NCBI GenBank assembly: GCA_015233615.1
Contig: JADFXJ010000002.1
Location: 10,667 to 74,666 of the forward strand
DNA from: Nitrospirota bacterium
GTDB lineage: Bacteria; Nitrospirota; Thermodesulfovibrionia; Thermodesulfovibrionales; Magnetobacteriaceae
DNA length: 64,000 nt
Reading direction: 5' to 3'
Shown: piece after piece, positions 2,780 to 40,977 of the stretch
Position numbering within the stretch: the stretch's first letter is position 1
Layout of the letters: every line of letters begins with the position of its first letter
Position numbers and translations under genes: made by a program
The notes under the pieces: generated by a model
The model's database searches: none
Seen by the model: only the letters and a program-made list of their open reading frames with translations
What the model was told of the DNA's origin: nothing

Positions 2780-4042
2780 ATGAAGGTAATGAGACACATT
2801 GTAATAGCTACGGTTTTCGTATTTGCCTTATACGCGGTAATGTACGCAACAGCCGCCCATGCCCATGAGTTGCCCAAAGGCGCGAAACCTCTGGCCGATT
2901 CACAAAAGTGCGCCAAGTGCCATCAAACTATCTACGATGAATGGAGGGCCTCCATGCACGCCAATTCTTCCATCCATTCCGATAGTGCACACGCCGCGAT
3001 TTACAAGGCATTCGTATCCGACATGGAAAAGATGGGCAAGAAGGGCACATATCACTGTGCCTCATGCCACATGCCGATGGCAGCCAATTTAAAAGAACTG
3101 ATTGCGGGCAACGCCAATCCTGATCCTAAAAACCCCATGGAACTGGAGGGTACCGGATGCGCTTTTTGCCACCGGATAGAAAAGGTAATCGAAGGCAAGA
3201 GCTGGAACGAGTACAAGCTAAAAGGCGCGGAGACTTACGGAACTGCCAATGCCGCAACAGTTGGTAAGGCTCCACATAAAACATTTGGCAGCAAACTATT
3301 CCTGGACGGCTCCTTGTGCCTGGGCTGCCACGGCCGCCTCGTAAATCCCCACCAGATCCCCGTATGCTCCATGAAAGAAGAGGGGCAGGGCAATTGCGTA
3401 TCCTGCCACATGGAAAAAACCGATGGAGCACCGGCCACCGGTTCCGCGAGAAATACCCACAGCGGACATTCCTTGTTTGGCGGGCACAATGAAGATACAC
3501 TGAAAAAAGCCGCCTCGCTGGAAGCTACGGTAACGGGCGGTGTCGAGGGAAAAACTCTGAACATAACGGTTAAAAACGAAATATCCCATGTCTTTCCCTC
3601 CACAATGCCCTTGCGCATGGCCTTTATCAAGGTCGTGTATTACGATGCGTCTGACAAAACCGGTTCGGGCGATTCCAAAGATAACGCAACCAACCAATGC
3701 TCCACCGGCTGCCGGTCCGACAAAGCAGTTTGGAGCAATTTCAAAGATAACCCCATGGAAGACAAAAACGCGGTCTTCATGAAATCCTTCAAGGCCGGCG
3801 ACAAAACCGGCGTACCGGCGTGGAGAGCCGAAGGAGTGGACTTCGACACCAGGCTGAAAGCCGGCGAAAGCCGCTTACTCTCTTACCCAATACCAAAGGA
3901 AGGTGTAAGCAGAATCGAGATAACCTTAAACTACAGGCTTTTCCCTCCCCAGGCCTCAGACGCACTTGGCATACCGAAAGATAACGTCAACGATAATGTT
4001 ACGGTCGTAGCCAGGAAAGAATTTCTTATAGGGTACAGATAG
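2780..4042 (+). CDS. periplasmic multihaem c-type cytochrome (five CXXCH sites)
   Basis: Hydrophobic signal peptide and five haem-binding motifs (CAKCH, CASCH, CAFCH, CLGCH, CVSCH). An aaggaga SD lies upstream of the ATG. Confidence 0.85.
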   Translation: MKVMRHIVIATVFVFALYAVMYATAAHAHELPKGAKPLADSQKCAKCHQTIYDEWRASMHANSSIHSDSAHAAIYKAFVSDMEKMGKKGTYHCASCHMPMAANLKELIAGNANPDPKNPMELEGTGCAFCHRIEKVIEGKSWNEYKLKGAETYGTANAATVGKAPHKTFGSKLFLDGSLCLGCHGRLVNPHQIPVCSMKEEGQGNCVSCHMEKTDGAPATGSARNTHSGHSLFGGHNEDTLKKAASLEATVTGGVEGKTLNITVKNEISHVFPSTMPLRMAFIKVVYYDASDKTGSGDSKDNATNQCSTGCRSDKAVWSNFKDNPMEDKNAVFMKSFKAGDKTGVPAWRAEGVDFDTRLKAGESRLLSYPIPKEGVSRIEITLNYRLFPPQASDALGIPKDNVNDNVTVVARKEFLIGYR

Positions 4043-4803
4043 TGAAAAGGATACTGATTATATTTTTAAGCACCTTGTTGTTTGCCTGCATTTGCGAGGC
4101 GACGGACACAAAGGTAACCGTCAGGGTACTGGCAAAGGACGCCAAGTACGTTGGTACGTCTATGGGTGGAGCTCTCATAATATTAAGGGACAGCCTCAGC
4201 GGAGAGATACTGGCCAGGGGTGTAACTAAAGGAGAAACCGGCAACACCAGGGCGATCGTGGCCGAACCGCGCAAAAGACACGCCGCCATATACGACGACA
4301 CCTCGGCGAAGTTCGTCGCCACGGTTAACGTAAAGGAGCCGACCCTTATAGACGTAGAGGCCACCGGGCCGCTTGCCCAAAAGCAATCTGCAGTTAAAAG
4401 CACCACCCAGGTATGGCTCATCCCGGGCAAAGACATTACCGGCAATGGCGTAACCCTGGAACTGCCCGGTTTTTCCGTAAGATTACTCCAGCCACTGCCA
4501 CACGAGACTATCGCTCTTAACGGAAAAACCTCCGTTGCCATCAAAGCCAACGTGGTAATGATGTGCGGATGTCCTACAGAGCCCGGCGGGGTTTGGGATT
4601 CAAGCAAGTACGAGATAAAGGCCATCGTAAAGCACAACGGCGAAATGCTGTCGGCCATGCCGCTTTCCTTTGCCGGCAAAACCAGCACTTACTCGGGAAA
4701 TCTTGAAGTGTCAAAGCCCGGTGCTTATGAAATAATCCTTTATGCCTACGACCCCGAAACCGGCAACTCGGGAGTGGACTCAACCACGTTTAACGCAAGA
4801 TAA
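4042..4803 (+). CDS. secreted protein of unknown function, translationally coupled to the cytochrome
   Basis: The GTG start overlaps the cytochrome stop. Signal-peptide-like N-terminus (MKRILIIFLSTLLFACICEA). Beta-rich composition with no family motif I recognise. Confidence 0.6.
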   Translation: MKRILIIFLSTLLFACICEATDTKVTVRVLAKDAKYVGTSMGGALIILRDSLSGEILARGVTKGETGNTRAIVAEPRKRHAAIYDDTSAKFVATVNVKEPTLIDVEATGPLAQKQSAVKSTTQVWLIPGKDITGNGVTLELPGFSVRLLQPLPHETIALNGKTSVAIKANVVMMCGCPTEPGGVWDSSKYEIKAIVKHNGEMLSAMPLSFAGKTSTYSGNLEVSKPGAYEIILYAYDPETGNSGVDSTTFNAR

Positions 4804-5573: not shown

Positions 5574-5741
5574 ATGAAAGTACTTTGCCTGTTAAAGCAA
5601 ACGCCTGACGCAACGGGCGCAAAAATAATCGAAACGCAGAAACAAAATGCCGAAGTAACTGTCGTCGACATGAGAACCAACAAAAACTACGACGAAATCA
5701 TCGATCTCATCACTTCAAGCGACAAAGTCATGACCTGGTAA
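5574..5741 (+). CDS. 55-aa ORF, possibly DsrH/TusB-like (below the length cut-off of the ORF track)
   Basis: SD ggaggg lies 8 nt upstream of the ATG at 5574. Translation is MKVLCLLKQTPDATGAKIIETQKQNAEVTVVDMRTNKNYDEIIDLITSSDKVMTW. The C-terminal ...DKVMTW end resembles DsrH/TusB. Confidence 0.4.
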   Translation: MKVLCLLKQTPDATGAKIIETQKQNAEVTVVDMRTNKNYDEIIDLITSSDKVMTW

Positions 5742-6049
5742 ATAAACGGGGTGCAGGGAGCAGCAGTTCGGAGTGCCGGAGGAAGCCGCAAAGGATGCCG
5801 CCAAAGGTGGCAAAAACCTGTAACGGCAGACGCTTCGAACGATATTCATAGCGATATATATGGCCTTGAACGATGTTCATGTCCATATGCAATTTAATCC
5901 GCCCCCAATTGCCCACTTACCATGAGCACACCCGGGGGCGCTGCCGCCTGGCAGCGTCCCCTCACTGCCCTTGTTGTCATTGTCGCGAAAGCGGGAATCC
6001 ACGCCCTTACCTTATATGCAATTTAACCGCGAAAGACTGGATCATCGCT

Positions 6050-6973: not shown

Positions 6974-7025
6974 GAAACACCTCCTGGTTAAACGCCTGTG
7001 CTGCTAAATCATGTATAGTGTATTA

Positions 7026-7460
7026 TCACCTCTTTTGTTTTTTTGCGTCGATACCAATAATTTCCCAAAAACCACCTGTAAAACCTCCATGGAAGAATGA
7101 GAATATAAACGCCGCGATTATAGGAAGAAAGGCGTATATCCCACCTTTGGAAAACAGATCGTTGATCTCGTGCTGCCTTTCGAAAAGCACCACGTAAAGC
7201 GACAAGCTGATAAGACCCAGGATAAGCGTCTTACTATAAGGCTTCTTCTTTAACCTGGCATAATTGTCTGTCAGGGTTTCCTTTCTCCATTCGCTCGCTT
7301 TCTGATTTCCTGCCGTTAACGTATCCGCCTTAGCGCCCTGCAAAGCTGGAGTGACCTGCTTTCCTTCATTGAGCATATCCCTGGCAGTGTCGAATTCACC
7401 AGCTTCGGCGAATGTTATTGCCGAGAATTGCTTGTCAAGTTCGTCCGATAACTTACTCAT
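7026..7460 (-). CDS. membrane protein of unknown function
   Basis: A strong SD (gaggagg) precedes the ATG. Soluble N-terminal half followed by hydrophobic segments (LILGLISLSLYVVLF, IYAFLPIIAAFIFSFF). Confidence 0.65.
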   Translation of the reverse strand: MSKLSDELDKQFSAITFAEAGEFDTARDMLNEGKQVTPALQGAKADTLTAGNQKASEWRKETLTDNYARLKKKPYSKTLILGLISLSLYVVLFERQHEINDLFSKGGIYAFLPIIAAFIFSFFHGGFTGGFWEIIGIDAKKQKR

Positions 7461-7910: not shown

Positions 7911-8129
7911 CTATGAGCCATTCGCACACACCGCTTTTAGAATGTCCGGTAAGTTAATTTCAATTTTATTAAGCACTTTTTCTGCAAGCCCCACTGGTCT
8001 AACAACCCTTGTTACTTTCACATCCGCGATAACTTCATCTATACAAACAACTTCGTTTAATGCCGAGATTAACTCGCCAACAGATTCTTCCATGTCTTCA
8101 ACCTTCTTAATAAACTCGTTTAATAACAC
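7911..8129 (-). CDS. hypothetical small protein (weak call)
   Basis: 72-aa ORF with a GTG start and no clear SD, in an AT-rich region. No recognisable motif. Confidence 0.3.
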   Translation of the reverse strand: MLLNEFIKKVEDMEESVGELISALNEVVCIDEVIADVKVTRVVRPVGLAEKVLNKIEINLPDILKAVCANGS

Positions 8130-8253: not shown

Positions 8254-8517
8254 GTGAGATTAATGATGGGTAGTACCGTCTTTATTTGTCAGGTAGGAGT
8301 GTTTATGGCTTATGCATCGAGGCATGGCTATGCTTTTTTGGATAAGAGGCTTTTTATCCCTGAAAAGTGGTTTACTGAGGATTACGCAGCCAGGAGAGAA
8401 AAGAATAACTTGCCGGAATCTGTCGTTTTTAAGACAAAACCCCAACTTGCCACCGAAATGTTTAAAGAGTTATCTACGGTGGACCCTCATACTCGTAAAA
8501 TCTTCCATATACCGTAG
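8254..8517 (+). pseudogene. IS701-like DDE transposase fragment
   Basis: GVFMAYASRHGYAFLDKRLFIPEKWFTEDYAARREKNNLPESVVFKTKPQLATEM matches the central region of IS701/IS4-type transposases. Only about 80 codons remain. Confidence 0.6.
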
Positions 8518-8530
8518 ATGCCGCATCATC

Positions 8531-8870
8531 TTACGATATAAGCACACATTTCGGGCCTCTGCCTTCAAACCAATCATGACGGGACCCATCCATCTGTATC
8601 ATTGCCCCCTCATTGCCCTTCCGTGGCCGCCACCTCCGATGTTCTCTGCTCTTGCGTATCTTTTCCCATTCACCCATCTCTATTAGCCACCGCCGTAACG
8701 TCTCATCGCTTATGGCTATTCCTTCTATCTCCTTAAACTTCTCCGCCGCTAAGGTTGGGCCAAATCCTTTATACTTCTCCTGATATATAACTTTTACCCT
8801 TGCTTTCATTTCCGCCGAATAGCTCCTGCCGGATTCCCGGCCTCTCAGCTTATGGGCTATCCCAGAGGCG
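8531..8870 (-). pseudogene. ISNCY-like transposase fragment
   Basis: HKLRGRESGRS...YKGFGPTLAAEKFKEIEGIAISDETLRRWL...IQMDGSRHDWFEGRGPKCVL matches the N-proximal part of ISNCY-family transposases. It lacks both the HTH start and the catalytic C-terminal part. Confidence 0.6.
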
Positions 8871-8873
8871 CCA

Positions 8874-10235
8874 ATGAGTGTACCTATACCTATCGTTTTC
8901 CTTTCGTATTCACACGATACCGACGCACACAAAGAGTGGGTCTTGAAGCTTGCCACCGATCTGATGGCAAACGGCGTGGATGCCGAGCTTGATCAGTGGG
9001 ATTTGGTTCCGGGTCAGGACATTGTCGCATTCATGGAAAAGGGTATTTCGGATTCCGACCGGGTGTTGATGATATGCTCCGAATCTTATGTGAAAAAAGC
9101 CGATAAAGGCTCCGGAGGTGTTGGTTACGAGGGGCTCATTGTCACGTCAGAGGTCGCGCAGAACATCGATACCATGAAATTCATTCCGCTTATTCGAAAT
9201 AACCCATCGAGTTCAAAGCTTCCCAGGTTTCTCGGTCATCGTCTCTATGTCGATTTTTCCAACGAAGAGCAGTACGACACGAAGCTGCAAGAACTACTGC
9301 GGGCGATACATCGGGTAAAAGTTAAGCCACGGCCCGGTCCAAACCCATTTTCCACTACTACTGCAGCCCGCGAGGATATATATACAGAAACTCAGAGTGC
9401 TATATATACCGATCCGGTAACGGGTACCGAATTAGTCCTGGTAAAGGGCGGGTGCTATCGGATGGGCAATGTGTTCGAAGCTGATGGGGATGGGTATGAA
9501 GACGAAAAGCCTGTCCACGAGGTTTGTGTGGATGATTTTTATCTGGGGAAATATGAGGTGACTGTCGGTGAATTCAAGACATTCGTGGATGAAGCAGGAT
9601 ACAAGACCGAGGCGGAAAAAGGTGATGGTTCTTATATTTGGACAGACAAAGGATGGAGAAAAGACAAAAACGCGAACTGGAGTAATCCCGGGTTTAAGCA
9701 GGATGATAAGCACCCTGTAGTCTGCGTATCGTGGAATGACGCGATAGCTTATATAGAGTGGCTATCCGCAAAGACCGGAAGGAAGTATCGTTTGCCAACT
9801 GAGGCCGAGTGGGAGTATGCGGCACGAAGTGGAGGAAAGGACTACAAGTATAGTTGGGGGAACGGAACACCTTCAGGCAATATCGCAGATGAAACTTTAA
9901 AAAGGCAGTTCCCGGATTGGTCCTGGCCTATTTGGGAGGGTTATGAGAGCGGCTATATATATACGGCACCTGTTGGAAATTTCATGCCAAATGAGATTGG
10001 TATATATGACATGAGTGGTAACGTGTGGGAGTGGTGTCAGGATGTTTATGCTTCGGATGCTTACAAGAAACACGCACGGAACAACCCTATATATACGGGG
10101 GATAGTGCCAGTAGTGTTATACGCGGTGGCAGTTGGTACACCTTACCGCGCTATGTGCGGGTCTTCCGCCGCGGCGACGGCGCGCGCGATGGCCGCAACT
10201 GCTACGTCGGGTTCCGCCTCGCAGGAATAAAATAA
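8874..10235 (+). CDS. TIR/SEFIR-like domain fused to an FGE-sulfatase (SUMF1-fold) domain
   Basis: N-terminal IVFLSYSHDTDAHKEWVLKLATDL..GVDAELDQWDLVPGQDIVAFMEKGISDSDRVLMICSESYVKKA is TIR-like. C-terminal HPVVCVSWNDAIAYIEWLS..YRLPTEAEWEYAARSGG..NVWEWCQD..RGGSW..GFRLAG is the FGE-sulfatase fold. Confidence 0.85.
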   Translation: MSVPIPIVFLSYSHDTDAHKEWVLKLATDLMANGVDAELDQWDLVPGQDIVAFMEKGISDSDRVLMICSESYVKKADKGSGGVGYEGLIVTSEVAQNIDTMKFIPLIRNNPSSSKLPRFLGHRLYVDFSNEEQYDTKLQELLRAIHRVKVKPRPGPNPFSTTTAAREDIYTETQSAIYTDPVTGTELVLVKGGCYRMGNVFEADGDGYEDEKPVHEVCVDDFYLGKYEVTVGEFKTFVDEAGYKTEAEKGDGSYIWTDKGWRKDKNANWSNPGFKQDDKHPVVCVSWNDAIAYIEWLSAKTGRKYRLPTEAEWEYAARSGGKDYKYSWGNGTPSGNIADETLKRQFPDWSWPIWEGYESGYIYTAPVGNFMPNEIGIYDMSGNVWEWCQDVYASDAYKKHARNNPIYTGDSASSVIRGGSWYTLPRYVRVFRRGDGARDGRNCYVGFRLAGIK

Positions 10236-10316
10236 CATTTTTGGTTTTTACCTTTTTACCTTTTGGAAAGCCTCACTATACGCAAGTATAGTAACAGAAT
10301 CTTTGGTATTTTGGTA

Positions 10317-10357
10317 GTGGAGGGCACCTTCGGTGCCCTCCACCGAAAATTTTTTTA
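10317..10357 (+). terminator. candidate rho-independent terminator after the TIR-FGE gene
   Basis: Perfect 12-bp GC-rich stem gtggagggcacc / ggtgccctccac with a ttcg loop. It is followed by cgaaaattttttt. Confidence 0.6.
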
Positions 10358-10433: not shown

Positions 10434-10728
10434 ATGTCTGCAAATGTGTCTGCAACAAAGATAAACCAATTCAAACCGGACTACGCCGTCTCACCGGGGG
10501 GAAATCCTTGAATAAACATTGGAAGCCCGCGGAATAAAGAAAGAAGCTTTTTGCCGCCATGTGTGGCCTTCCGGTTAAAACCGTCATTCAAATTATACAG
10601 GGAAAGGAGCCTGTTACTCCGGAAACTGCAATACTATTTGAGCGAGTACTGGAGTTCCCGATTACGTGTGGAATAATATCGAGTCTTCATACCGTATTCA
10701 CTTAGCCAGGGTATTATCCGCTACATAA
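10434..10728 (+). pseudogene. higA: decayed HigA/VapI-type HTH antitoxin gene
   Basis: Pieces FKPDYAVSPG / EILE*TLEARGIKKEAF / CGLPVKTVIQIIQGKEPVTPETAILFERVL / GVPDYVWNNIESSYRIHLAR occur in three different frames with an in-frame stop. No higB partner lies upstream. Confidence 0.55.
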
Positions 10729-10749: not shown

Positions 10750-11256
10750 TTACAACGCTCCAACATGCTTAAGCTCTTCTTTTGAAAATGTTTCCTGCTC
10801 TTCCTTCTGCAACTCTTCGATAACTCGTTTCTTCTTATCTTCACTTAATGCATCTGGATTCTCATAAATTAACTGCAACAGATTGTGAGGCTCCATGGCT
10901 GATTTCAGTTCCTTGTCATGTTCAGCAGTCTGAAGTGAACCGTTTTCATAACGGTGTAACGTAGCCACACCCCATCCCAAAATCTCACTCAACTCAGATT
11001 GAGTCAAGTTATATTTTATTCTGAATCTCTTCAGTTCATCAGGCTGAACCATTCCGTGCCTTCTGCGGTATTCCCTGTAAGCTTTGCTAACGGAGTCATC
11101 ATCAGCAAGAGGATCATCAAAAATAGAGTTACAGGTTAAACATTTCAGACATGAAGACTCTACTTCGATGTCCTCCCCACGGATTTTAAACACTTCCGGA
11201 AAAACTATATTTACTATTTCTCTTTTGGCTTCACAAATTGGGCATATATCTTTCAT
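10750..11256 (-). CDS. mqsA: MqsA-family antitoxin (zinc-ribbon plus XRE HTH)
   Basis: CPICEAK...CLKCLTCNS zinc ribbon followed by the HTH YNLTQSELSEILGWGVATLHRYENG. The ATG at 11256 overlaps the toxin stop as ATGA. An alternative ATG lies at 11271. Confidence 0.8.
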   Translation of the reverse strand: MKDICPICEAKREIVNIVFPEVFKIRGEDIEVESSCLKCLTCNSIFDDPLADDDSVSKAYREYRRRHGMVQPDELKRFRIKYNLTQSELSEILGWGVATLHRYENGSLQTAEHDKELKSAMEPHNLLQLIYENPDALSEDKKKRVIEELQKEEQETFSKEELKHVGAL

Positions 11257-11618
11257 TTTGCTCCCATGCAAGGAAACTTTAGGGGGTGTTTTGCCTCATG
11301 AAAAGAGATGCATTTTGCAATATGCGGCTTCTCTTCAATCTCGGCTATCTTAAGTTTGATATAGATTGTCACGTTTTCAATACTCTTGCCAAAGACCCAT
11401 ACTTCACCTTTCATCCCGCTATCATCTACCAAGGGCCCCCTACAATAGTCTTGAACAGACAGAGACAATATTTCATAATAGCGGTTCTTCTTAGTCAGAC
11501 CAATGTCGGCTAATGTTTGGTTATTGACCCGCCTCGGTACGACGTCTATTCCTCTTCTATCTGCTATTTGCTTAAACACCATAAGAAATTCCCGTACCCG
11601 TTTTGTCGTTTCATTCAA
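11253..11618 (-). CDS. mqsR: MqsR-family toxin
   Basis: LSLSVQDYCRGP...GEVWVFGKSIENVTIYIKLKI...AKCISFHEAKHP matches the MqsR family. It sits upstream of its antitoxin, as in mqsRA. The start is uncertain: TTG at 11618 or the internal ATG at MVFKQ. Confidence 0.7.
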   Translation of the reverse strand: MNETTKRVREFLMVFKQIADRRGIDVVPRRVNNQTLADIGLTKKNRYYEILSLSVQDYCRGPLVDDSGMKGEVWVFGKSIENVTIYIKLKIAEIEEKPHIAKCISFHEAKHPLKFPCMGAK

Positions 11619-40033: not shown

Positions 40034-40977
40034 ATGAGCACGGGAAGTATTGAGGTTACACCAGAAGTTAAACGAGTACTGGTAAAGCTGGCCGAAGAGG
40101 CCAAAGGCGGGAAACGGGACGTCCTCTTCGACGGCGGTATATCCCACCCCGTAGATGACGCGGCACTTACCGTTCTGCTAAAACAAGCTACGCTTGAGCA
40201 ATGGAAGACGAAACCGGTTACTCGAAACCCGTTACACCGGGCGAACTATGGGATGCGTTAGCAGACCACAAGCCCCGGATGCTTTTTCTCTCCGGTTGCA
40301 ACACCGGCAAGGGGCATGGCGACGGTTCCACCGAGTCTTTCGCCTACCAGATGGTGGAAAAGGGTATACCCGTTGTCCTGGGATGGGGCCTGCAGGTGTC
40401 GGACAGTGGCGCAACTCTATTTACGGAGAAGCTTTACCGCGCCCTGGCCGCGGGCATCGGCATTGGCGATGCACTCCAGAGAGCACGTAAGGCTGTTGGC
40501 GATACATCATACCATCCATGGCCTTTGCTGAGGATATTTACCGACGGTACGGCCGCTAACGCCTATTGTCGATAAAGGCCAGGCGCTCAGGCAAGACACG
40601 GCAAGAGCGGCAACGGTTCGATACCTTAAGGGCGCGGCGGTTAAACTTCTCACCGAGGGCTTCATTGGCCGCAGAAGGGAAGTACAGCGCGGCATAAGAA
40701 CCATTAAGGGCATTGGCGGCAAATACGGTGCCATCATCCACGGCACGGCCGGAAACGGCAAGAGTTGCCAGCCTTAGGCGATCAGCACCCTGCCGTTGCG
40801 ACCTGGTATAACAACATCGGTGAAGCCTGGAGAGCTCTCGGAGAATACGACAAAGCGATCGGTTTTCACCAAAAGGCGCTCGATATAGGTTTGCCGGCCT
40901 TAGGCGACAAGCATCCAAGCACTCAAACAGTGAAAGAAAACCTCGAAATCGCCGTGCGCAAACTTAATTCGCAATAG
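40034..40977 (+). pseudogene. relic of a CHAT-(P-loop NTPase)-TPR gene
   Basis: CHAT-like ...KPRMLFLSGCNTGKG...GIPVVLGWGLQVSDSGATLFTEKLYRAL is in one frame and P-loop IIHGTAGNGKS in another. The P-loop is joined directly to the TPR ALGDQHPAVATWYNNIGEAWRALGEYDKAIGFHQKAL in a third. The NTPase body is missing. Confidence 0.65.

Follow-up and report, generated by a model that had tools for sequence, protein, structure and literature searches.

A SEFIR domain joined directly to a non-catalytic FGE-fold lectin with a DGR-type variable region: a candidate one-protein immune receptor from Nitrospirota

We describe a single gene at positions 8874 to 10235 (plus strand) of a 64,000-nt stretch of a Nitrospirota metagenome-assembled genome (MAG; contig JADFXJ010000002.1), the whole of which is called the window below. 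Its product, 453 residues long, joins a bacterial SEFIR domain of the anti-phage bSEFIR family to a domain of the formylglycine-generating enzyme (FGE) or C-type-lectin (CLec) fold, whose C-terminal end resembles the variable region (VR) of a diversity-generating retroelement (DGR) target. We read the gene, with a probability of about 0.6, as encoding a cytoplasmic one-protein immune receptor of the bSEFIR family that acts by abortive infection or NAD+ depletion. The features of the gene and its 3' flank, with positions counted from the first letter of the window, are as follows.

8874..10235, plus strand: SEFIR-FGE/CLec fusion open reading frame (ORF), 453 aa, MBF0563713.1
8886..9353, plus strand: SEFIR effector module, aa 5-160 including the KP.LG.NPF tail (PADLOC bSEFIR, 5Y8E, invariant columns)
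8991-8993, plus strand: codon of the invariant D40 (alignment of 38 homologues)
9129-9131, plus strand: codon of the invariant E86, GGVGYE motif (alignment of 38 homologues)
9354..9401, plus strand: unconserved linker and fusion junction, aa 161-176 (identity to P0121 ends at NPFS, aa 160; FGE homology from about aa 177)
9402..10223, plus strand: non-catalytic FGE-sulfatase/C-type-lectin-fold domain, aa 177-450 (PF03781 E=5.3e-65, Protein Data Bank matches)
10104..10226, plus strand: DGR-type variable-region-like segment, last ~40 codons (boundaries predicted by homology to verified variable regions)
10137-10208, plus strand: hypervariable core, Y422-V445 (scaffold RGGSW-xxx-P-xx-xR-...-R-xxxx-GFRL)
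10236..10272, plus strand: conserved non-coding motif after the stop codon, CATTTTTGGTTTTTACCTTTTTACCTTTTGGAAAGC, common to DGR-type FGE genes of other phyla, including verified targets
10317..10356, plus strand (hairpin 10317-10343): 12-bp GC-rich hairpin GTGGAGGGCACC-TTC-GGTGCCCTCCAC followed by a T-run, AAAATTTTTTT; terminator-like

A two-domain fusion in one open reading frame

The ORF begins with ATG, preceded by a Shine-Dalgarno-like AGAGG at 8860-8864 (9-13 nt 5' of the start), and runs for 453 codons. The exact protein is deposited, from an 81.5-kb contig, as 'MAG: SUMF1/EgtB/PvdO family nonheme iron enzyme [Nitrospirae bacterium]', a misleading annotation that the present analysis corrects. 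In a search with hidden Markov models (HMMs) of Pfam, the N-terminal half matched TIR_2 (aa 8-142, 83.8 bits) and SEFIR (aa 8-141, 66.7 bits), and the C-terminal half matched FGE-sulfatase PF03781 (aa 185-450, profile positions 3-254 of 255). Both matches are far beyond chance. They agree with a preliminary description of this DNA, made from the sequence alone, in which the ORF was given exactly and was taken to join a TIR/SEFIR-like N terminus to a complete FGE fold. The linker of about 50 residues proposed there corresponds to the 43-residue gap between the Pfam matches, whereas the unconserved part covers only about 16 residues; the true linker is short because the SEFIR module reaches on to the conserved KP.LG.NPF motif.

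Read directly from the sequence rather than with a predictor, the N terminus contains neither a signal peptide nor a transmembrane segment. At the level of sequence, both folds are already established by matches to solved structures. Profile searches of the ORFs in the 64-kb window revealed no conserved partner gene, as the preliminary description had supposed, and its reading of the protein as a one-component sensor-effector gains support from the intact SEFIR domain and from the other half, a non-catalytic FGE domain of a clade used as a sensor.

The N-terminal half is a bacterial SEFIR domain

In PADLOC, to which the preliminary description had pointed, aa 5-177 match the bSEFIR model (PDLC03957) with E=1.5e-70 over profile positions 38-212 of 412. 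The best match among solved structures is the Bacillus cereus SEFIR domain (5Y8E/5Y8F), with E=2.6e-25 for the single sequence and 6.8e-45 for a 38-sequence family profile. The human Act1 SEFIR domain is second to 5Y8E for the single sequence (4e-3; 2e-4 with the family profile), while TIR structures reach at best 0.015 with the single sequence and 3.7e-7 with the profile, TIR NAD+ hydrolases (NADases) lying between 1e-7 and 1e-4 in the latter. The Pfam SEFIR score likewise exceeds that of TIR PF01582 (26.1 bits); the generic TIR_2 score is higher than both, and this model is known to match all STIR subtypes (PMC13142454). Under the rule by which Millman et al. selected bSEFIR proteins, the SEFIR match has to be N-terminal and stronger than the TIR match, and the fusion protein shows both, so that its N-terminal domain is of SEFIR class and not a generic TIR. 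An alignment of 38 homologues has 22 invariant columns, and the protein carries the conserved residue in 22/22, D40 and E86 included. The N-terminal half is an intact, genuine bacterial SEFIR domain, a SEFIR-class STIR of the bSEFIR family.

These two residues are the SEFIR-interface Asp (D40) and the acidic active-site candidate (E86) of the family. A Bacillus SEFIR protein is reported to defend against phi29 on its own, and its D40A mutation to abolish defense (preprint 10.1101/2022.05.11.491447); judged from residue numbering rather than from alignment to that protein, our D40 is the probable counterpart of the mutated residue. SEFIR has also been described as a single-protein system causing NAD+ depletion by means of its N-terminal SEFIR domain (10.1101/2024.02.11.579819). 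The expectation of a defense-class N terminus in the preliminary description therefore holds as to class; as to type, the domain is specifically SEFIR, presumably with bSEFIR-like NAD+ depletion, rather than the Thoeris-type TIR named there.

A comparison of relatives shows how the domain is deployed. In the alignment of 38 homologues the conserved module extends to KP.LG.NPF, at about aa 150-160, and is followed by at least five unrelated C termini: a zinc ribbon, a LuxR/GerE helix-turn-helix (HTH), a 'WF..MELRFAL..TFGWP' domain, a winged-helix-like tail and a beta-rich tail. Beyond this conserved joint, the C termini of the family are interchangeable. The closest SEFIR relative, P0121 (MBF0564937.1), shares 83% identity as far as NPFS and carries a zinc ribbon beyond it, and P0179 (MBF0564735.1) is another SEFIR protein whose C terminus differs from that of the fusion. 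Because the accession numbers of these two lie within about 1,000-1,200 of that of the fusion, the three are probably paralogues of one MAG. SEFIR effectors thus combine with many alternative C-terminal modules, probably in three paralogues within a single genome.

A junction at which similarity to a paralogue ends exactly is also what a faulty assembly might leave, if SEFIR and FGE halves from different loci had been joined at a repeated SEFIR paralogue; the protein is known from one contig only, and the 83%-identical copy is probably in the same MAG. We hold this to be very improbable. The frame is kept across the junction with no stop or frameshift, 83% amino acid identity is too low for an assembler to collapse the copies, and the junction immediately follows the NPF joint, the point at which every family member changes its C terminus.

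The FGE half is a lectin fold that lacks the catalytic cysteines

The FGE half matches the Streptomyces coelicolor FGE structures 6MUJ/2Q17 with E of about 1e-33 and the DGR target TvpA (2Y3C) with 2e-11. Following RGGSW the protein reads YTLPRYVRVFRR, exactly as first described. Where 6MUJ/2Q17 have the catalytic 'LCHDSYC', the aligned protein has 'TLPRYV' and a gap of 3 residues, so both Cys residues are missing, which confirms the earlier view of this half as lacking the Cys pair and likely non-catalytic. A genuine enzyme, with formylglycine-generating or sulfoxide-synthase activity as in the NCBI annotation, would fit the strong match to FGE structures, but is scarcely credible: for FGE the loss of both catalytic Cys effectively refutes it. 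Neither is there a DinB-like iron domain, the N terminus being SEFIR, and the NCBIfam scores fall far below every equivalog cutoff (PvdO, 145 against 500; EgtB, 96.5 against 360; OvoA, 69.5 against 400). Profile searches found no sulfatase gene among the ORFs of the 64-kb window.

The nearest FGE homologues, 52-64% identical, are domains joined to caspase, trypsin, Ser/Thr kinase, PEGA, CsgG-like or signal-peptide N termini, and the closest match in reference genomes (58%) is from a Thermodesulfovibrionia MAG. By these relationships the FGE half belongs to a clade that serves as a sensor module on caspases, kinases and trypsins. STAND proteins with FGE-sulfatase sensors are also present in a 2026 survey.

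The end of the lectin resembles a DGR variable region

Across the 84 nt that follow GGSW, the composition of the gene changes abruptly, with A falling to 11% (28% in the rest of the gene) and GC rising to 70% (48%). So little A is found in only 0.4% of the 84-nt segments that make up the long ORFs of the window. The third codon position is C in 21/32 codons of the variable segment, compared with 21% elsewhere. Between fixed scaffold residues, the variable codons, mainly of NNC/NNT form, are TAC ACC TTA / TAT / GTC TTC / GGC GAC GGC / GAT GGC / AAC TGC TAC GTC, and judged by this pattern they are the products expected of AAC, AAT and AAA template codons under adenine mutagenesis.

An alignment of 20 FGE homologues shows strong conservation through RGGSW and, beyond it, a fixed scaffold alternating with hypervariable residues. 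The near-identical proteins P0009 and P0014 differ mostly in their last ~130 residues, and most densely in the variable region; the near-identical pair P0023/P0025 also has its differences densest there. The same jump in composition occurs in the homologous FGE genes. The protein is like DGR targets in having a C-type-lectin/FGE fold with a C-terminal variable region on a conserved scaffold, and at its ligand-binding tip the composition, the codon pattern, the scaffold and the 3' flank are those of a DGR variable region. The segment after RGGSW, first interpreted as a lost active site, is indeed that, but not solely: it also appears to be a DGR-type variable region.

Relatives are targets of mutagenic retrohoming in the same segment

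To compare this segment with documented cases, we turned to 80 reference-genome loci with related FGE domains. Pairs of a template repeat (TR) and a VR, 119-145 nt long, are found in six of them (L016, L032, L038, L064, L065 and L073), and in all six 90-100% of TR/VR mismatches are at TR adenines and lie within the homologous FGE segment. A reverse transcriptase (RT) ORF is in the locus in three of the six (L016, L038 and L064). Compared codon by codon (L016, L032, L038, L065 and L073), the VRs span the same segment as in our gene, and TR AAC/AAA codons coincide with its variable positions. The spacing from W to GFRL is 25 residues in the verified VRs and in the fusion alike, and in L032 a TR AAA has become a VR TTA at the position equivalent to the TTA codon of the fusion. 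This sequence evidence shows that, in close relatives of the FGE domain, mutagenic retrohoming specific for adenines acts on the same segment. Comparative-genomic work has put forward FGS/CLec domains as sensors of invaders that a DGR diversifies, the DGR lying close by or 'elsewhere in the genome' (PMC7159879, PMC8195603, PMC10907252).

In L032, from a Methylococcaceae MAG, one TR (5632-5755) serves three FGE-type targets, whose VRs lie at 4009-4132, 6983-7106 and 10131-10254, with 12-16 mismatches each, of which TR adenines account for 93-100%; no RT ORF turned up in 17 kb of this locus. Avd or RT genes (bAvd, RVT_1) occur in the loci of relatives at L003, L016, L038 and L064, and the caspase-FGE gene P0029 has a bAvd and a truncated RT next to it. 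At L003 (12134-13040), and at L004, a decayed DGR cassette adjoins two caspase-FGE genes: bAvd is intact, of the RT of L003 only the C-terminal 213 aa remain, joined directly to the end of Avd, the TR is gone, and a HepT/MNT toxin-antitoxin pair is inserted alongside. With a truncated RT and no TR left, L003 and L004 were set aside as examples of an intact DGR, and the six loci above were used instead. No TR or RT was found within reach at L001, L005, L006 and L008.

A conserved motif and a hairpin follow the gene

The 3' motif, YTTTTACCYTTT, is duplicated after our gene, where the flank reads ...TTTTTACCTTTTTACCTTTTGGAAAGC. It was found at 9/95 genes compared with 1.2% of random windows. Other occurrences are at L005 8240-8270 (a Nitrospirae caspase-FGE gene, almost identical), at L008 8923-8960, at L015 and at the verified DGR targets L016 (4900-4940) and L032 (three genes). 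The hosts are Nitrospirota, Gammaproteobacteria and an unclassified MAG, the protein of which is labeled Planctomycetes by NCBI, and a GC-rich tetraloop hairpin often lies 3' of the motif. The motif may be a target-side cis element for retrohoming, or else a shared terminator or regulatory signal; we know of no earlier description of it.

The strong terminator hairpin that the preliminary description assigned to the gene is present, as the 12-bp GC-rich hairpin and T-run. It stands about 80 nt past the stop codon and looks like an intrinsic terminator, with a DGR target hairpin as a possible alternative. A TTTTACC motif and a GC-rich hairpin thus lie 3' of the gene as in some verified targets; the initiation of mutagenic homing sequence, for its part, is definable only with a TR.

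Proposed function

Taking bSEFIR and one-protein NAD+ depleters such as DSR2 as analogues, we propose the following sequence of events, in which both the immune function and the NADase activity of the fusion are inferred. The variable lectin surface, with a binding specificity written by a DGR at some point, would bind an invader-derived molecule, for example a phage protein or glycoconjugate. Binding would drive SEFIR-SEFIR association via the D40 interface, and this association would switch on NAD+ hydrolysis at the E86 site. NAD+ would then be depleted, phage replication would stop and the infection would be aborted, as reported for Bacillus bSEFIR.

We know of no account of how bSEFIR proteins sense phage. 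DGR-diversified lectins, in turn, have been proposed as bacterial 'antigen receptors', to our knowledge with no experimental test so far. The fusion links both ideas in the simplest architecture, a known effector plus a variable domain for binding, and neither ATPase nor adaptor nor partner. If the protein is active, it would offer a tractable model for the gating of an immune effector by a DGR-type lectin and for what such lectins recognize, as well as for the reprogramming of specificity by swapping or mutating about 12 variable codons.

A role outside immunity would have the SEFIR domain serve as a homotypic interaction adaptor, with the variable lectin tuning a regulatory or cell-cell recognition pathway. 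The LuxR/GerE HTH C termini of some SEFIR homologues suggest regulation, and cyanobacterial DGR targets are discussed as regulatory tuners. The earliest proposal for bacterial SEFIR was, moreover, a general role in protein interaction (Yang et al. 2018, cited in 10.1101/2022.05.11.491447). We nevertheless consider such a role distinctly unlikely, as the sole experimental data for the SEFIR family concern anti-phage defense and NAD+ depletion, the Glu of GGVGYE is invariant across the family, and the gene sits among insertion sequence (IS) elements and toxin-antitoxin genes, not in a regulon.

Findings that weigh against an active immune receptor

Several findings tell against the proposed function. 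The match to the PADLOC bSEFIR profile covers just its N-terminal 42%, and the protein as a whole does not match the family HMM. A catalytic role for E86 is suggested by its invariance and by its position, ~80 residues into the domain after beta-C ('YVKK'); a mapping of E86 onto the TIR catalytic Glu by profile-to-structure alignment was tried and dropped, the TIR alignments ending at profile position 73, before E86. R438 occupies a scaffold position at which at least 90% of the FGE family has Pro; the change could be a sign of decay, or of a TR codon that is variable, as in L038. The fusion has been found once, on one contig of one MAG, and forms its own 50% cluster. No TR was found in the 64-kb window by BLAST with relaxed scoring, by ungapped A-tolerant scans with 40-120-nt pieces or by an IUPAC pattern, and the region matched only itself. 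Among the ORFs of the window, none has RT motifs or matches RVT_1 or bAvd. On the plus strand, no sigma70-like site was found within 600 nt upstream of the gene. Because of this, and because an IS relic has replaced the native upstream region, expression is uncertain. The two relics concerned are listed here.

8534..8872, minus strand: ISNCY-family transposase relic, truncated at both ends (NF033594 E=7.1e-33, profile positions 38-150 of 368; HTH_32)
8281..8481, plus strand: IS701-family transposase relic (NF033540 E=6.4e-16, profile positions 114-178 of 363; DDE_5)

The gene was correctly described at the outset as starting against a truncated ISNCY-like relic: homology to the transposase ends at nt 8872, 2 nt from the ATG. 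A relic that abuts the start codon implies that the locus has been rearranged. With no DGR cassette in the window, two readings of the variable region are left: a DGR in another part of the genome retargets it in trans, or it is a frozen 'orphan' specificity that outlasted a rearrangement by IS elements. The A-tolerant TR pattern, WAMAMMWWACCGCGCWAWRWRCGGRWMWWMMRMMRMRRMRAMRRMRMRMRMRAWRRMCGCAAMWRMWAMRWM, gave 0 matches in GTDB genomes and JGI metagenomes, even to the region itself; since the source MAG is not in those collections, this null says nothing about a TR in trans.

The second of these possibilities, taken further, is that the protein is a frozen relic: IS activity would have removed its DGR cassette and native promoter, and the product would be poorly expressed or non-functional in defense. 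The relics upstream, the lack of a promoter-like site close by, the missing TR, RT and Avd and the replacement of a near-invariant scaffold Pro by Arg all fit, as does the debris of another conflict gene, a CHAT fragment at 40.2 kb. Such decay has been caught at L003, which retains Avd but has only 213 aa of its RT and no TR. This view, which partly overlaps our preferred one, seems to us unlikely. The 453-codon ORF is intact and keeps all 22 of the invariant SEFIR residues and almost every invariant residue of the FGE core, a Shine-Dalgarno-like site and a terminator are present, and a frozen variable region can still work as a sensor of fixed specificity.

A trans-acting DGR elsewhere in the genome could, on the other hand, be a hidden 'partner'. 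That such a DGR still rewrites the variable region, which would make the protein a minimal two-domain hypermutating receptor on an NAD+-destroying effector, is possible, if somewhat doubtful. If true, an adaptive sensor resembling an antibody would be attached to a suicide enzyme, with neither a nucleoside triphosphatase (NTPase) nor an adaptor between them, and the TTTTACC element would be part of a previously undescribed target-recognition signal of this DGR lineage.

Genomic neighborhood

The AT-rich island noted in the preliminary description is seen in the GC content, which is 39-44% at 7-9 and 10-12 kb and about 48-55% in the flanks, and the toxin-antitoxin genes mentioned there correspond to an MqsA/MqsR-like pair downstream (10753-11618), for which no functional link to the fusion gene is shown.

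10753-11271, minus strand: MqsA-family antitoxin (TIGR03830 E=4.5e-23)
11256-11618, minus strand: weak MqsR-like toxin (PF15723 E=0.0016)

Between the terminator and this pair, at 10434-10705 (plus strand), are two short out-of-frame ORFs, the second with a weak HTH_3 match (E=0.055), that resemble an Xre/HigA-type antitoxin pseudogene with a frameshift. Upstream of the IS relics, the AT-rich stretch contains ORFs at 7029-7460 and 7911-8129 (both minus strand) with no Pfam, NCBIfam or PADLOC match; the first, hydrophobic in its C-terminal half, may be a membrane protein. Farther away, at 40201-40977 (plus strand), what seems to remain of a second conflict-type gene is a CHAT (caspase-like) fragment (Pfam positions 179-269 of 289, E=2e-13) with a TPR fragment after it. 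The nearest FGE relatives of the fusion are CHAT/caspase-FGE proteins. Scans for tRNA genes and Rfam families, as signs of an integration site or riboswitch, returned nothing.

Rarity and comparison with known systems

No second SEFIR-FGE fusion was found among the best 120 SEFIR and best 120 FGE matches, among the top 150 matches from 1.84 billion representatives (all others of which cover only residues from about 150 to 453) or among 106 FGE ORFs in related loci, 50,697 phage records and 72,556 plasmid records. One plasmid match nominally covering 'at least 80%' of the protein (H47) proved to be an over-extended FGE match and was discarded. The direct two-domain combination appears to be new and unique in the databases searched, while both of its parts, the bSEFIR family and DGR-type FGS sensors, are known. 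Published work also describes more distant combinations of TIR and lectin, in which an NTPase usually separates the domains.

The enzymes FGE/SUMF1, EgtB and PvdO share with the protein the overall PF03781 fold; it differs from them in having no Cys pair, no DinB iron domain and no sulfatase or ergothioneine context, and in scoring far under their thresholds. The DSR1/DSR2 SIR2 fusions and TIR-STAND Avs proteins, which we cite as a mechanistic analogy only, likewise combine an N-terminal NAD+-consuming effector and a C-terminal phage sensor in one polypeptide. Their effector fold, sensor fold and size are different, and none has a DGR-type variable sensor.

With the bSEFIR system (Millman et al. 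2022; PDLC03957; 5Y8E/5Y8F) the resemblance is closer. Here too the SEFIR domain is N-terminal and has the same invariant residues, including D40 and GGVGxE, and a single polypeptide carries the effector at its N terminus and a variable part at its C terminus, with no partner gene. In contrast, profile positions 213-412 are unmatched in the fusion, their place being taken by an FGE-fold lectin with a DGR-type variable region.

The caspase-, kinase-, trypsin- and PEGA-FGE proteins belong to the same FGE clade and have the same variable-region scaffold, and the 3' flank of one of them, P0048 from another Nitrospirae MAG, is nearly identical to ours, TAAC(A)TTTTTGG(C/T)TTTTTACCTTTTT. Their N termini, however, are protease, kinase or secreted modules, not SEFIR. 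Among DGR variable proteins (Treponema TvpA, 2Y3C; Dore et al. 2024; Kaur et al. 2020 and 2021), we find the same fold, the C-terminal RGGSW...GFRL scaffold with A-poor NNC codons, the 3' flank motif at verified targets and effectors placed N-terminal to the FGS domain; unlike these, the fusion has no cognate TR, RT or Avd within 64 kb. Whereas the immune-type DGR targets described so far mostly have STAND/NACHT or vWA between effector and lectin, in the protein described here the SEFIR domain sits directly on the lectin.

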